Shown here: positions 4,446-46,053 of the stretch, piece by piece
Numbering within the stretch: position 1 is the first letter of the stretch
Layout of the letters: every line of letters starts with the position of its first letter
Sequence record: NC_028925.1
Direction: 5' to 3' (one strand)
DNA: 64,000 nt
Origin: Escherichia phage vB_EcoM_VR25
Notes under the pieces: generated by a model
What the model saw: only the letters and a program-made list of their open reading frames with translations
Told to the model about the DNA's origin: nothing
Databases searched by the model: none
Program-made: the position numbers and the translations under genes

Positions 4446-4577
4446 TTAAATTTTCCAATTGCCATTTTCATCAATGAATTTAATCCAGTCATTTACTGAC
4501 CACTTAGTTGTATCACCTTTTGGAGTAACATTTAAAGTGTATAACCCCTGCTTAAAAAACATTCGTTTGATATTCAT
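4446..4577 (-). CDS. Hypothetical small protein, about 43 aa
   Basis: Internal ATG of the track ORF 4446..4670, preceded by GAGGAAA SD; the upstream ORF stop (TGA) sits inside that SD. Confidence 0.35.
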   Translation of the reverse strand: MNIKRMFFKQGLYTLNVTPKGDTTKWSVNDWIKFIDENGNWKI

Positions 4578-4584
4578 ATTTTCC

Positions 4585-4878
4585 TCAGCTATAACGGTAA
4601 CATTCATTTGATTTACGCTTTGCAACACGATGAGAAGTATTATAATCAAAATCATCCTCAACGTACACATCTTTTTTCAACTGGCGAACTTCTTTACGAA
4701 GTTGGCGGTTCATTTCATTCTTAACTTCAGAATCAACACCACGCATACGCTTCCATTTGTCTGAACGGAAGATATTTTCTTCAACTTGTTCCTGACTTAC
4801 ACCATCAGGTGCCTGACGACGCCCTGAATAACAAAAATCTTTTACAGACAATTCTTTACGACGAATAGTTTTACCCAT
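4585..4878 (-). CDS. Hypothetical basic protein, 97 aa
   Basis: Track ORF; Lys/Arg-rich. Confidence 0.45.
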   Translation of the reverse strand: MGKTIRRKELSVKDFCYSGRRQAPDGVSQEQVEENIFRSDKWKRMRGVDSEVKNEMNRQLRKEVRQLKKDVYVEDDFDYNTSHRVAKRKSNECYRYS

Positions 4879-15791: not shown

Positions 15792-16076
15792 TTATTTCTT
15801 ACAACCAACATATTTTGGCATATGACAGAAAACAGAATCGGTAACTACTCGACCCTTTGCCCATGCTTCCTGTGCTTTACCGTGAGTAGTATTCACATAG
15901 CTGGATTTAATATTCTCGATACCTTGAGAATGTGATGCGTGTGCAGAACCATTAGAAGGACCTGCTGACTGACTTGAACCTTGACCGCCTGGGCCTGATG
16001 TGCCTTCAGTAGCCAGTACACCAAAAGACATAACAGCGGCCAACAGGCCTATAGCCACTTTTAATTTTAATTTCAT
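15792..16076 (-). CDS. Secreted Gly/Ser-rich protein with signal peptide, 94 aa
   Basis: N-terminal MKLKLKVAIGLLAAVMSFGVLA signal-peptide-like segment; mature part Gly/Ser/His-rich with two C-terminal Cys. Confidence 0.5.
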   Translation of the reverse strand: MKLKLKVAIGLLAAVMSFGVLATEGTSGPGGQGSSQSAGPSNGSAHASHSQGIENIKSSYVNTTHGKAQEAWAKGRVVTDSVFCHMPKYVGCKK

Positions 16077-20403: not shown

Positions 20404-20679
20404 TTATAATCTTTTAAACTTGAAACAATATATTGCAAATAAATCAGAAAAATGTCTATCAACCCATATTCTTTGCACTGGGCTAGTAACAGTCAGCATA
20501 TAATGTGCTTTTTGTAAATTTATTCCATTTTTATTCGGGCATTCTTTATTAACAGAATGGTACGTGCTTGCTACTATTTCAATTTCCCTTTCATATCTCT
20601 CGCTATCTGTTTGTGTGGGGATAAATGCAATTCCAGCAATAACAAAAATAGAGATATACGTCCAAATCTTATATATCAT
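20404..20679 (-). CDS. Membrane-anchored protein, 91 aa
   Basis: N-terminal hydrophobic helix WTYISIFVIAGIAFIP then a soluble Cys-containing domain. Confidence 0.45.
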   Translation of the reverse strand: MIYKIWTYISIFVIAGIAFIPTQTDSERYEREIEIVASTYHSVNKECPNKNGINLQKAHYMLTVTSPVQRIWVDRHFSDLFAIYCFKFKRL

Positions 20680-21666: not shown

Positions 21667-21860
21667 TATTCATCTACGTGTTGGACACGTTTGTTTTTGT
21701 CAATAAAAGTATATTCAACATACTCGCCGATATACCACTTATCTACGTTGTGAGGACTTTTTATAGGACACTTGGTTATCCGTGTTTCGGACCAGTGTCG
21801 AATAATTGTAGCTTTGTTTTTAGGGTCAAATGGGTGTGGATAATGTGCTTTCATAATCAA
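21642..21860 (-). CDS. Hypothetical protein, 72 aa
   Basis: Track ORF. Confidence 0.4.
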   Translation of the reverse strand: MIMKAHYPHPFDPKNKATIIRHWSETRITKCPIKSPHNVDKWYIGEYVEYTFIDKNKRVQHVDEYCLKVQWL

Positions 21861-22305
21861 CTACCACCAAATCAATATCAGGAGTAAACATATCAATTAA
21901 CCGGGAAACCTTATCCCAATCACCACCTGCAATACCACAGCCAATCCTGGGAATATAAATCACAGGCTTGAACAAAAGGGATTCTGCTTGTCGATTTAAT
22001 TCTATCATGCAATTTACTAAAGCGCCATAATCCAGATTTGGACCCGGTTCATACTGGGTATAAAGGTTATAGCACATACCAAATCCAGTTGGCTTATGTT
22101 TAAAAACGATAGACATATCACCGAGTTTTTCTCGGGAACCGTATTCAGTTGATGTTTTATCCATTTCTAAAATTTTTGGGTAAGCCTTTGCCAGTTGGCC
22201 AGCAACGCCTGACCCCATTGTATGGAAACAATTACAGCCATGAGCTATGATGTTTCCTTCAAGAAAGAGGGCGACAATATCGCCCTTAATATAGTTAACA
22301 ATCAT
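21826..22305 (-). CDS. Macro-domain (ADP-ribose-binding/processing) protein, 159 aa
   Basis: ATG start; KGDIVAL...IIAHGCNCFHTMGSGVAGQLAKAYP and IPRIGCGIAGGDW resemble macro-domain diphosphate-binding loops. Confidence 0.55.
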   Translation of the reverse strand: MIVNYIKGDIVALFLEGNIIAHGCNCFHTMGSGVAGQLAKAYPKILEMDKTSTEYGSREKLGDMSIVFKHKPTGFGMCYNLYTQYEPGPNLDYGALVNCMIELNRQAESLLFKPVIYIPRIGCGIAGGDWDKVSRLIDMFTPDIDLVVVDYESTLSTPI

Positions 22306-22661
22306 TTAGAGTTCAATCCTCTGTTATAGGAATCGACTAACCTGTCAACCATACTGGTGCAGGCCGCTTTATATTTGGCACTCGACAGAATACAATCCAT
22401 TTCAAATAGTTTCTTTTCATATTTGTTGGATAAAATACTCTTTTTCATAAGAGTGTGTTCAACATCATTTTGACCGTCTTTATATGCAGCAGTGAGTTTG
22501 GCACTGAACTGGATTACACAATCCACATTGCTTGATGCGCAATAATCTTTGGCCGTCCTCGTTGCATATTCTATGATGCTATTATTATCATCGCTCTGTA
22601 CTGAAGCTATTCCTCCCGTGCTGAATACTAACCCTATGGCTAAAGTTATGACTCTTACCAT
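22302..22661 (-). CDS. Secreted/periplasmic Cys-containing protein, 119 aa
   Basis: ATG start; N-terminal MVRVITLAIGLVFSTGGIASV signal-peptide-like segment; four Cys in the mature part. Confidence 0.5.
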   Translation of the reverse strand: MVRVITLAIGLVFSTGGIASVQSDDNNSIIEYATRTAKDYCASSNVDCVIQFSAKLTAAYKDGQNDVEHTLMKKSILSNKYEKKLFEMDCILSSAKYKAACTSMVDRLVDSYNRGLNSK

Positions 22662-23204
22662 TTAATCCACCGTTTTTAATAGGCCTCGTGATTTTAAGTA
22701 GTTAGCTTTTTCTAGGACTTGCGAAGCATACGTGTTTCCAGCTTTCACATTCCACCCTGCGTTATATGATGATAGTGTTTTTCTTATGTCCCCCTTGTGA
22801 ATGTTTAACCAGTATGAAAACTCAATATAAGCCCAGCGTGCACTGTTCTCTCTCTTGCTTATCATCTTGATTATTTCTTTATCTGTCATTGTCCACCCAA
22901 CCTGTTTTACGCGCTCGCGCACGGTTGGAAGATAATTTTGGAATATACCATATGCATGATGCTTATCTTTATTTAATCCTGTATTAACACCAGCAGATGA
23001 TTCCTGCCAGGTTAAACCAGCCATGATATATCCCAAACCATTATGTTGGTGCGGATTTTCTTTGTACTTACCATTTTTCTGGAACTGTTCTCCAAACGCA
23101 TAAGCATATTGGAGGTTCTCCATTTGTTCATTACTGAAAGTAGGCTCTACGCTATGGGCAGACATACTAACTGTCAATAGTAAAGTGGCTATTACTTTTT
23201 TCAT
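22662..23204 (-). CDS. Secreted lytic transglycosylase-like (SLT domain) protein, 180 aa
   Basis: ATG start; signal peptide MKKVIATLLLTVSMSAHS; SLT motifs TWQESS (catalytic E-S), HAYGIFQ, SSYNAGWN. Confidence 0.55.
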   Translation of the reverse strand: MKKVIATLLLTVSMSAHSVEPTFSNEQMENLQYAYAFGEQFQKNGKYKENPHQHNGLGYIMAGLTWQESSAGVNTGLNKDKHHAYGIFQNYLPTVRERVKQVGWTMTDKEIIKMISKRENSARWAYIEFSYWLNIHKGDIRKTLSSYNAGWNVKAGNTYASQVLEKANYLKSRGLLKTVD

Positions 23205-23214
23205 GAATTCCCCA

Positions 23215-23673
23215 TTAGATATAAATCACTTTTGTGCTAATTTTTCCTTCCAGACGATTAGAGTTAACAAACGCCATACGACAACACATGGTTGGAGACT
23301 TCCCAGGAAGAGCTGGGTTAACTGTCATTCCTAACCATAAGTTCTTGTCTGTGATTTCCAGACGAAGTGGACGGTAGTTCACATTCGGGTCAATTTGTGC
23401 TTCAACTTCCGGGAGTGGTTTCATCTCCAGGAATTCAACAATTTCTTTTACATGTGGTGTGATTTTTCCAAACAAGTCAAAAACATATTGTTCGTCAATT
23501 TCACGTTGGATTGCACGGTCCAACAGGTGTGGACTGTACTTAATGAAGAATGCTTCAAGGCCTGCTTCTTTACAAGCCTTGTTGATAGCATTATTAATTT
23601 TGAGGAACTCCGTTTCAAAAATACGACGAAGTTTATTGCGGCGAATGTAAACACTTGAATCGATAGTAGTCAT
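23215..23673 (-). CDS. regB: RegB site-specific endoribonuclease
   Basis: ATG at 23673 preceded by AAGGAG; MTTIDSSVYIRRNKLRRIFETEF...SPHLLDRAIQREIDEQYVF... closely matches T4 RegB; track ORF starts further up at GTG. Confidence 0.85.
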   Translation of the reverse strand: MTTIDSSVYIRRNKLRRIFETEFLKINNAINKACKEAGLEAFFIKYSPHLLDRAIQREIDEQYVFDLFGKITPHVKEIVEFLEMKPLPEVEAQIDPNVNYRPLRLEITDKNLWLGMTVNPALPGKSPTMCCRMAFVNSNRLEGKISTKVIYI

Positions 23674-23700
23674 GATTATCTCCTTTTGTTTGATGGGATA

Positions 23701-23730
23701 ATCATAACTCATTTCAACCTGCTTGTACAC
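23701..23730 (-). promoter_or_regulatory. Early promoter cassette upstream of regB
   Basis: Minus strand GTGTAC-18 nt-TATGAT then leader TATCCCATCAAACAAAAGGAG. Confidence 0.5.
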
Positions 23731-26934: not shown

Positions 26935-27216
26935 TTATTTTGTGGAAGCAGCCGAGATATATTTTTCAAGACGCTGTTTCATCAGCGAGCCGTTCTTAGC
27001 GATTTCTTCCGGTTTATCGCACATACGCAATAGAGCTTCAAGCTTAGTGATATCAGATGTCCGCTCAAATTTGCGAGTATCTACCTTACTAGCAAGTTCG
27101 GAAATACGCGCTAACAGACTTTCGGCTTCTACCAAAGCTGTGCCCAGCTTAGTTGCAAATGCGTCAGTAGCTTCATTAAGAGTGGTCACGGTCAAAAATT
27201 CATTATAGGTTTTCAT
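26935..27216 (-). CDS. Internal-protein-like protein with divergent CTS, 93 aa
   Basis: Starts [10 protein letters not shown]...; ATG start; 3-prime to gene e as ipIII is in T4. Confidence 0.55.
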
Positions 27217-27697
27217 ATACTTTCCAAGTTCCTGTTTTAAATGTTGAGATTACACGTTTCGCTCGATTAGGTGTTTGTTTGTACCATTTGGATTGAGCCA
27301 GGTTAACAGCAGCTTCGTCCCAACGTTTCTGTTGAAGCAACCGAAGGGAGTTAGTAAACCCAGCAACGCCGGCTTCACCCATTTGGAAGACCATATTAAT
27401 CAGGGCACAGCGACGAACTTCGTCAAGACTATCATACACTGGTTTTAATTTAGCATTACGCATAACACTCGCACGTGCTTTTTCCACTGAACGGTTAAAC
27501 AAGGTTTCAGCTTCAACCTGGGTAATCCTACCGTTGCAGACGCGACCCATGAGCTTGTCGAGCTCGGCACGAGCAACATCTTTCGATGGGTTCTTAGTTA
27601 TCAGTTGCCCGATACCGATGGTCCAATATCCTTCGGTATCTTTATACAAATCCAACTTACAACCTTCATCTATGCGTAACATTTCGAATATATTCAT
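27203..27697 (-). CDS. e: Lysozyme (endolysin) gp e
   Basis: 164 aa, ATG start; [12 protein letters not shown]...[13 protein letters not shown]... very similar to T4 lysozyme. Confidence 0.95.
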
Positions 27698-44326: not shown

Positions 44327-46053
44327 TTAATATGTCAGATAGTGTAAGTTGGTTCGTCGGTGTAGTTGAAGACCGAATGGACCCGCTTCAGCAAGGCCGT
44401 GTGCGCGTTCGCGTGTGGGGTATGCATCCATATGAGAAAGCACAAGGTCCTGTGAAAGGTATCAGAACCGAAGACCTCCCTTGGATGTCTGTATTGATGC
44501 CAACATCATCTGCGTCGGTTTCTGGAATTCAAACCGCAATGACTGGTATGGTACCAGGGACTCAGGTATATGGTCACTTTTTGGACAAGTGGAAGCTCAA
44601 CGGTCTTGTCATTGGTACATATGGTTCAGCCTCAAGACAAAAAGCAAATCCTAACGAAGGCTTCTCTGACCCCACGGGACAATATCCACTTTATGTCGGT
44701 AATGATGCTGCAGCGCTTAACCGTGGGGGTGAAGTTGGTTATGATGCTACTTCGAACGTAATCCAGGATGCAAACCTTGACCTTGGTATTAACCCTGATG
44801 GCCTTGATTTAAGCCAGGTTAAGCCAGATGATAATCCCAATTTCACAATTGAAAATATGCTTCACCGCGATGAAGGTCTTCGTTTGAAAGTATATTGGGA
44901 CTCCGAAGGATATCCGACTGTCGGGATTGGTCACCTTATTACCCCGCAAAAAATTCGTAATATGGAACAAATCAACTTGATATTATCAAAGCAAGTTGAC
45001 CGTGAAGTTAAAGGAAACCCAGGCACAATATCCATGGATGAAGCTTCGAAGTTATTCCAGGAAGACCTTAAGAAAGTACAAAAAGATATTGGCAGTACAA
45101 ATGCGCTTTTATCCCAGGTTTATAACCAAGAAAACAGGTCAAGACAAATGGCCCTGGAAAACATGGCATTCCAAATGGGTGTAGGTGGACTGGCTAAGTT
45201 TCGTAGCATGCTAGGCAATATGCTTGTTAAAGATTATAAAGCCGCTTTCGATAACGCAAGGGATTCGGTTTGGTTCCAACAGACAAAAGGCCGGGCATCA
45301 AGGGTATCGATGATTATCTTGACTGGCAACATGGAGTCATATGGCATCATGGCTCCAAAAGAAGGTGGACGTGCTCGCATGACTACTTTTGCCGAACCAA
45401 GAGAAGCCGACCCGGCTGACCCGTGGACTCCAGAAGATACAAGGATTCTGTTTAAAGAACCAGAATCAAGTTACAAAGGCGAATATCCTTACATACAGAC
45501 AATGCAAACCGAAGGCGGTCACATTCAGGAATTCGATAACACTCCTGGACAAGAACGTTATCGACTGATTCACCCGACTGGCTCCTATGAGGAAGTTGCT
45601 CCGGATGGTCGTAAGACTTCAAAGACAGTAGCCGATGGTTATTATATGACCCAGGGCGATTCGAGCACTTATGTTGGCGGTAATAATAAAGTCAACGTCG
45701 GCGGCGATGAAACCTATTACAATATGGCTAACGTTCGCAGACAAACCGATGGAAACGAAAGCATTCATATCAGAGGGAATGAAACCAAAACTATCGAAGG
45801 TGACGGTACAATTATTGTCAAAGGTAATGTAAGTATTCTGGTCGAAGGTAATGCTGAAATAACTGTTAAAGGTGATGCAAAAACTCTTGTCGAAGGTAAC
45901 CATGATTATACAGTAAATGGTAATGTCAAATGGTCCGTTAATGGAAACGTTGATATGACTGTAGCTGGCAACTGGTCCGAGACTATGGCTTCAATGAGTT
46001 CTATTGCATCCGGACAATATACTATTGATGGTTCGAGGATTGACATTGGCTAA
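44323..46053 (+). CDS. 5: Baseplate hub and tail lysozyme gp5
   Basis: 576 aa, ATG start; central T4-lysozyme-like domain and C-terminal repetitive VxGxxxxxV beta-helix; matches T4 gp5. Confidence 0.95.
   Translation: MINMSDSVSWFVGVVEDRMDPLQQGRVRVRVWGMHPYEKAQGPVKGIRTEDLPWMSVLMPTSSASVSGIQTAMTGMVPGTQVYGHFLDKWKLNGLVIGTYGSASRQKANPNEGFSDPTGQYPLYVGNDAAALNRGGEVGYDATSNVIQDANLDLGINPDGLDLSQVKPDDNPNFTIENMLHRDEGLRLKVYWDSEGYPTVGIGHLITPQKIRNMEQINLILSKQVDREVKGNPGTISMDEASKLFQEDLKKVQKDIGSTNALLSQVYNQENRSRQMALENMAFQMGVGGLAKFRSMLGNMLVKDYKAAFDNARDSVWFQQTKGRASRVSMIILTGNMESYGIMAPKEGGRARMTTFAEPREADPADPWTPEDTRILFKEPESSYKGEYPYIQTMQTEGGHIQEFDNTPGQERYRLIHPTGSYEEVAPDGRKTSKTVADGYYMTQGDSSTYVGGNNKVNVGGDETYYNMANVRRQTDGNESIHIRGNETKTIEGDGTIIVKGNVSILVEGNAEITVKGDAKTLVEGNHDYTVNGNVKWSVNGNVDMTVAGNWSETMASMSSIASGQYTIDGSRIDIG

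Follow-up and report, generated by a model that had tools for sequence, protein, structure and literature searches.

Two adjacent genes on the minus strand of Escherichia phage vB_EcoM_VR25 (NC_028925.1) are the orthologs of T4 vs.1 and vs, and the proteins that they encode both begin with a predicted export signal. They were found in a stretch of 64,000 nucleotides (nt) of this phage, hereafter the window, as the open reading frames (ORFs) 22662-23204 and 22302-22661 (Table 1). The first product, Vs.1, has the fold and the invariant catalytic motifs of the SLT/GH23 enzymes. Taken together, its identity, fold, active site and export are in our judgement very probable. The second product, Vs, is annotated throughout, in T4 and many relatives, as a modifier of the host valyl-tRNA synthetase (ValRS), which is a cytoplasmic enzyme. 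The exported-protein architecture of Vs is hard to reconcile with this annotation, and the conflict is present in T4 Vs itself.

The assignment of the two genes is based on several comparisons. At the DNA level, the window shares 99.7% identity with Escherichia phage vB_EcoM_VR26 and 99.5% with VR7; both phages are T4-like, and their counterpart genes are annotated tk.4, vs, vs.1 and regB. The window protein of 180 amino acids (aa) shares 65% identity with T4 Vs.1 over its full length, and the 119-aa protein shares 45% with T4 Vs. In PHROGs, the shorter protein matches phrog_1256, ‘valyl tRNA synthetase modifier’ (E 1.3e-32), and the longer one matches phrog_600, which is labelled ‘unknown function’. 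Homologs of Vs bear PF26829, and by its sequence the window Vs belongs to the T4 Vs family. An NCBIfam search gave no meaningful match for Vs.1 or Vs. We assign the two ORFs to T4 vs.1 and vs as their orthologs, and the phage to the T4-like VR7/VR26 group.

A preliminary description, made from the letters of the window, had read these ORFs as two secreted early proteins, one of them an SLT-like enzyme, and had regarded the enzyme as unexpected. Both ORFs are present at the coordinates it gave, on the minus strand, and the features it named are not a product of chance. It had suggested a comparison with T4 vs and vs.1, and that comparison identifies the two genes; its suggested roles, in superinfection exclusion, cell-wall remodelling or lysis timing, are conjectural. 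The SLT similarity of vs.1, however, was published in 2006 by Nolan et al., who cite earlier PSI-BLAST matches of the T4 protein (PMC1524935). In UniRef and in several GenBank records, relatives are already named ‘Transglycosylase SLT domain-containing protein’ or ‘lytic transglycosylase’. The observation on vs.1 is therefore a correct rediscovery of something already known, and the description missed that the second secreted-looking protein carries the ValRS modifier label. Our literature search returned no paper on the function of Vs.1, no experimental work on Vs.1 and none on export of Vs. What remains of interest is the clash between annotation and architecture of Vs, together with a conserved third muralytic-type gene of T4-like phages.

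Fold and catalytic motifs of Vs.1

The three signatures listed in the preliminary description are all present in Vs.1: TWQESS (with E68), HAYGIFQ (with G86 and Q89) and SSYNAGWN (with Y147-G150). We compared 81 relatives drawn from IMG/VR, with identities down to ~30%. E68, G86, Q89, E128, W132, Y147, N148, G150 and Y159 are invariant in 81/81, and A149 is kept in 76/81. In the classification of Blackburn and Clarke, the motif set E-S / GxxQ / YNAG belongs to the family-1 transglycosylases. Vs.1 has the lysozyme-like alpha-helical fold of GH23, with E68-S69 inside a predicted helix (58-75), and the top matches for this fold are mostly bacterial transglycosylases. In hhalign alignments, E68-S69 falls on E64-S65 of MltE and GIFQ on GLMQ, and Slt70 (QES, GLMQ) is aligned in the same register. 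The MltE residue aligned to E68 is the one changed in PDB entry 4hjy, an inactive E64Q mutant.

Some of the comparisons weigh against this assignment. The hhalign matches to the single E. coli sequences of MltE and Slt70 are weak (E 0.1-0.2), which is due to the use of single sequences as templates. Against Pfam SLT (PF01464), the window Vs.1 scores 13.2 bits (E 0.067), below the gathering threshold of 21.3 bits. No transglycosylase was found among the PDB chains, either with the Vs.1 sequence or with a 38-member profile; the profile gave noise only, for example a metacaspase and amylin. A homolog search with the Vs.1 profile gave phage proteins only among the best 120 matches. For the family, the Pfam comparison is clearer. 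T4 Vs.1 reaches 25.1 bits and five other relatives tested reach 25-32 bits, all past the cut-off, and 37 of the 38 aligned relatives match SLT at E≤1, the best at 1.3e-7. Because the window protein's own matches to Pfam and to PDB sequences are sub-threshold or absent, the SLT assignment rests on the fold, the motifs and the family as a whole. On these three the SLT/GH23 claim of the preliminary description holds; the Pfam score of the window protein itself is marginal.

With regard to the chemistry, Vs.1 might also be a hydrolytic goose-type lysozyme, that is, a muramidase. In g-type lysozymes the second acids lie in the stretch that corresponds to the one after E68, and there the alignment of Vs.1 relatives shows no invariant Asp or Glu; E128 is located far downstream. 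The lack of a second conserved carboxylate after E68 favours transglycosylase over hydrolase chemistry. The family-1 motif set and the predominance of bacterial transglycosylases among the fold matches point in the same direction, so that we hold a hydrolytic enzyme to be quite improbable. The chemistry of a lytic transglycosylase is favoured for Vs.1 on this pattern of conserved residues. The mature protein would then be a single-domain enzyme of ~18.7 kDa with a goose-lysozyme/SLT (GH23) fold. Glu68, part of the E-S motif where the catalytic helix ends, would serve as its only general acid/base. Its predicted reaction is cleavage of the β-1,4 bond between N-acetylmuramic acid (MurNAc) and N-acetylglucosamine (GlcNAc) in peptidoglycan, yielding 1,6-anhydroMurNAc.

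Neither the endolysin e nor the lysozyme domain of gp5 is related to Vs.1 in a comparison within the window, in agreement with the preliminary description, which had kept Vs.1 apart from both. T4 e mutants fail to lyse unless spackle is also mutated, and Vs.1 alone is therefore not a lysis enzyme, which would fit a low or restrained activity. Since e, gp5 and vs.1 are all found in the window, the phage holds three muralytic-type genes; a recent T4 paper still puts the number of lysozyme genes at two, e and 5 (PMC7650644).

Export signals and the annotation of Vs

Export signals were identified by a home-made heuristic. Under its rules the n-region is basic and free of acidic residues, an uncharged core of at least 10 residues begins no later than position 11, an AXA-type site is present, and no membrane segment comes afterwards; cleaved and uncleaved signals are not told apart. 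Only 5 of the 189 ATG-initiated window ORFs with 60 aa or more pass it. Vs.1, with the precursor N-terminus MKKVIATLLLTVSMSAHSVEP, and Vs, with MVRVITLAIGLVFSTGGIASVQ, are both among the five, as expected from the signal-peptide-like N-termini that had been described for them. By the same heuristic, the tripartite N-terminus is found in 38/38 aligned Vs.1 relatives and in 27/28 Vs relatives, with varying residues; the exception is one N-terminally truncated sequence. The T4 Vs protein begins with MTKILVLCIGLISFSASASA, followed by D at the predicted cleavage site. In the Enterobacter phage CC31 clade (loci L032-L034, L036 and L051), Vs has a lipobox, LSGC, instead of the type I signal peptide (MKKLFVLLVVFALSGC). 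These orthologs are predicted lipoproteins, though their records name them valyl-tRNA synthetase modifier. The signal-peptide architecture of Vs.1 and Vs appears to be conserved, and it suggests that both proteins are exported and processed. It counts against this reading that it is derived from a sequence heuristic. In the rows retrieved from the SignalP table in the supplement of Nolan et al. (2006), only numbered novel ORFs are listed, and a search of the supplements did not find vs.1 in that table.

The N-terminal segments of both proteins could alternatively be uncleaved signal anchors, or segments of the signal-arrest-release (SAR) type as in T4 RI, so that Vs.1 and Vs would remain attached to the inner membrane on its outer face. 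Gly, Ser, Thr and Ala are abundant in their h-regions (VITLAIGLVFSTGGIAS; ILVLCIGLISFSASASA), a trait of SAR domains, and segments of this kind would pass our heuristic equally well. However, nearly all members have AXA-type sites at the expected distance, the h-regions are short (11-20 residues), and the lipobox variants imply processing by signal peptidase II. We therefore regard tethering as unlikely and favour cleavable signals on both proteins.

The body of Vs would also fit a location outside the cytoplasm. The window Vs contains exactly four Cys, in agreement with the preliminary description, at positions 41, 48, 90 and 101, and all four are present in 48/48 distinct proteins of the Vs family. 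An AlphaFold2 model (predicted local distance difference test score, pLDDT, 74.7) shows a four-helix bundle with helices 24-40, 46-66, 71-90 and 95-116. In this model, Cys41 and Cys48 flank the first helix-helix turn, and Cys90 and Cys101 flank the third. Such a placement would suit disulfide staples of a periplasmic protein.

The literature on Vs and its name argue for a different location. As named, Vs would be a 10-kDa factor acting in the cytoplasm, where it binds ValRS and alters it; its hydrophobic N-terminus would be no working export signal, or would give only partial export, and the neighbourhood of vs.1 would reflect ordinary gene packing. We consider this a possible, if doubtful, account. 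In hosts with a thermolabile ValRS, T4 infection rescues the enzyme in vivo, and a factor responsible for such a rescue would act in the cytoplasm. Binding of Vs to ValRS, with a change in the properties of the enzyme, is attributed to Muller and Marchin in PMC8076793. The modifier annotation is borne by T4 and by many relatives, and abutting or overlapping genes are usual in this region; the stop codon of vs (TGA) and the start codon of tk.4, for instance, overlap as ATGA. These points weigh against a periplasmic Vs. On the other side, the signal-peptide architecture across the 48 distinct members, the LSGC lipobox of the CC31 clade and the four invariant Cys argue for selection for export and against a purely cytoplasmic protein. 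By calculation, T4 Vs has a mass of 13.06 kDa as precursor and of 11.05 kDa when mature. Muller and Marchin, in 1977, reportedly obtained ~10 kDa for the purified ValRS factor, to which the mature form is nearer than the precursor. Full-length Vs with an N-terminal His-tag was insoluble according to PMC8076793, which likewise speaks against the cytoplasmic account.

Searches for relatives of Vs outside the known family were also made. When 1.84 billion representatives were searched exhaustively by HMMER, the Vs profile found 8 hits, all of them phage Vs fragments or relatives but one. As the family is confined to phages, no bacterial relatives lend it a function. A search of PDB sequences with the profile gave weak noise only, and the fold search, which returned generic helical bundles and nothing specific, likewise does not help the case for a periplasmic role. 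The exception among the 8 hits, P0117, was rejected. It is a protein of 3694 aa with ~17 near-identical repeats, and its multi-stretch match (E 4e-11) to profile positions 18-55 looks like the sum of weak repeat matches.

Gene linkage and a proposed Vs.1-Vs module

We examined the order of genes in 54 T4-like loci, namely those with a Vs.1 of at least ~40% identity. In 53/54, the start codon of a Vs-family ORF is found at -8 to +7 nt relative to the vs.1 stop. By comparison, 49/54 of these loci have a detectable regB and 43/54 a detectable tk.4, which makes the vs.1-vs junction the most conserved link of the neighbourhood. Vs loci found independently in IMG/VR are in 26/26 cases on contigs with Vs.1 directly upstream. 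The pair is also kept, with a 1-nt overlap, in a 154-kb metagenomic phage in which Vs.1 is only 41% identical and regB is not detectable.

Three observations speak against a functional pair. In RB16/Lw1-type phages one gene lies between vs.1 and vs. In Ackermannviridae with Vs.1-like genes, Vs was not detected; in Salmonella phage Mutine, for example, an unrelated 212-aa ORF comes after the Vs.1-like gene. Finally, tight packing with stop/start overlaps is general in T4 early regions, so that coupling alone is weak evidence of a partnership.

As an observation on its own, SLT proteins resembling Vs.1 (~205 aa) are encoded at the Ackermannviridae loci L062-L068 and L071-L083; they have a signal peptide and the full set of catalytic motifs. 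In place of Vs, a conserved ORF of 210-212 aa follows, overlapping the Vs.1-like gene by 1 nt, and its product may be a different partner.

In the window, vs.1 starts 10 nt past the regB stop and is preceded by a GGGGA Shine-Dalgarno sequence. Both vs.1 and vs lie in the regB-tk block and, by synteny, are transcribed as in T4. The multi-omics tables of the PMC9697503 supplement place both genes of T4 in the class ‘early-RNA_middle-Protein’. The early character of the two genes, as previously described, is thereby supported. A scan for promoters and terminators upstream of vs.1 gave nothing specific, with counts near the shuffled expectation. Across the whole window, the MotA-box-like sequence WWTGCTTYA occurs 23 times, compared with 8.9 expected from shuffles, and 0/100 shuffles reach 23. 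This count is consistent with many T4-type middle promoters; none of the 23 sites is just upstream of vs.1.

We tentatively propose that the main role of Vs is that of a partner of Vs.1 in the periplasm and not the modification of ValRS, that it is stabilised by disulfides and is a lipoprotein in CC31-type phages, and that the two genes form a module. Vs.1 itself is very probably made from the early unit regB-vs.1-vs-tk.4, with export through a cleavable Sec signal peptide. In the model, Vs would be translated from the start that abuts the vs.1 stop and co-exported with Vs.1. The exported form would be a four-helix protein of ~11 kDa with each Cys pair flanking a helix-helix turn. It might act with Vs.1 in the periplasm as a regulator, an inhibitor or a targeting partner, and might thereby keep the action of an early-made, wall-cutting enzyme on the host peptidoglycan local and non-lethal. 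Under this proposal, the vs assignment, which is ~50 years old, would be a mis-assigned ORF or would reflect a secondary or post-lysis association. If export of Vs is confirmed, a textbook T4 annotation needs revision, and a new pair of periplasmic enzyme and partner is gained. If the module is real, T4-like phages hold a third, regulated muralytic system that is active from early infection.

Table 1. Features of the vs.1-vs locus and other muralytic genes of the window
Feature	Position	Strand	Basis or remark
vs.1 ortholog; 180-aa precursor, predicted single-domain SLT/GH23-type lytic transglycosylase	22662-23204	minus	ORF and homology
vs ortholog (‘valyl-tRNA synthetase modifier’); 119-aa precursor, four helices, four Cys, predicted exported	22302-22661	minus	
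Predicted Sec signal peptide of Vs.1, aa 1-18, MKKVIATLLLTVSMSAHS, cleavage between AHS and VEP	23151-23204	minus	heuristic
Vs.1 Glu68-Ser69 codons; E-S motif, predicted catalytic acid	22998-23003	minus	codon positions checked
Vs.1 Gly86-Ile-Phe-Gln89 codons; counterpart of the GLMQ motif	22938-22949	minus	
Vs.1 Ser146-Tyr-Asn-Ala-Gly150 codons; counterpart of the AYNxG motif	22755-22769	minus	
Predicted signal peptide of Vs, aa 1-20, MVRVITLAIGLVFSTGGIAS, cleavage before VQ	22602-22661	minus	heuristic
Abutting vs.1 stop (TAA) and vs start (ATG), GATTAAATG; proposed translational coupling	22659-22664	minus	
regB (endoribonuclease); upstream neighbour, shared transcription unit	23215-23730	minus	Pfam REGB_T4, E 5.7e-72
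tk.4 (macro domain); downstream neighbour	21826-22305	minus	Pfam Macro, E 1.5e-8
Endolysin e ortholog	27206-27697	minus	74% identical to T4 lysozyme
gp5 lysozyme domain	44848-45342	plus	40% identical

Some other genes of the window are of separate interest. The tk.4 ortholog has a sub-threshold likeness to the ADP-ribosyl glycohydrolase of the DarG antitoxin (NCBIfam, E 1.9e-7, 30.7 bits, cut-off 250). Three further minus-strand ORFs have hydrophobic or signal-peptide-like N-termini, and their phrogs are of unknown function. The 94-aa ORF 15792-16076 (phrog_2243) begins with a signal-peptide-like segment, MKLKLKVAIGLLAAVMSFGVLA, followed by a low-complexity body rich in Gly, Ser and Gln. The 91-aa ORF 20404-20679 (phrog_6298), with a hydrophobic N-terminal segment, is located directly downstream of tk. 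It occupies the position of T4 rI.1/rI and could encode a membrane or periplasmic protein related to lysis inhibition. The 74-aa ORF 4446-4670 (phrog_24953) has a strongly hydrophobic N-terminal segment (MILIIILLIVL).

Comparison with known systems

The closest known counterparts are the T4 proteins. The window Vs.1 resembles T4 Vs.1 (NP_049725, UniProt P13311) and its orthologs in size, in the type of signal peptide, in its position between regB and vs and in the invariant motifs. No substantial difference was found apart from the lower Pfam SLT score given above. The window Vs resembles T4 Vs (NP_049724, UniProt P13310; PF26829) in length class, in the four Cys, in the C-terminal SMVDRLVDSYNRGL motif and in position, with no structural difference.

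Compared with the family-1 lytic transglycosylases (E. coli Slt70, MltE/EmtA, MltC and MltD; P. aeruginosa Slt and MltF), the identity of Vs.1 is 11-19%. A conserved N-terminal helix and hairpin (aa 23-57, FSxxQxxNLxYAYxFGEQ), which the Pfam domain does not cover, sets Vs.1 apart from these enzymes. It also differs in carrying neither a lipid anchor nor accessory domains and in being the product of a phage early gene. The resemblance of Vs.1 to the specialised transglycosylases of secretion systems, such as EtgA of the type III secretion system and enzymes of the VirB1/IpgF type, is one of architecture. In contrast to them, Vs.1 has no known associated secretion machine, and any partner would be Vs and not a rod or needle protein.

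For the proposed role of Vs, a possible model is found in T4 itself. Spackle (gp61.3) is a small helical early protein of the periplasm with a cleaved signal peptide and a disulfide, and it binds and inhibits the gp5 lysozyme (PMC7650644). A Spackle-like origin of Vs was rejected, as hhalign found no similarity between Vs and T4 Spackle; a Spackle-like role is conceivable. Although Spackle and Vs are unrelated in sequence, the Spackle-gp5 pair is a precedent for the role proposed here for Vs.

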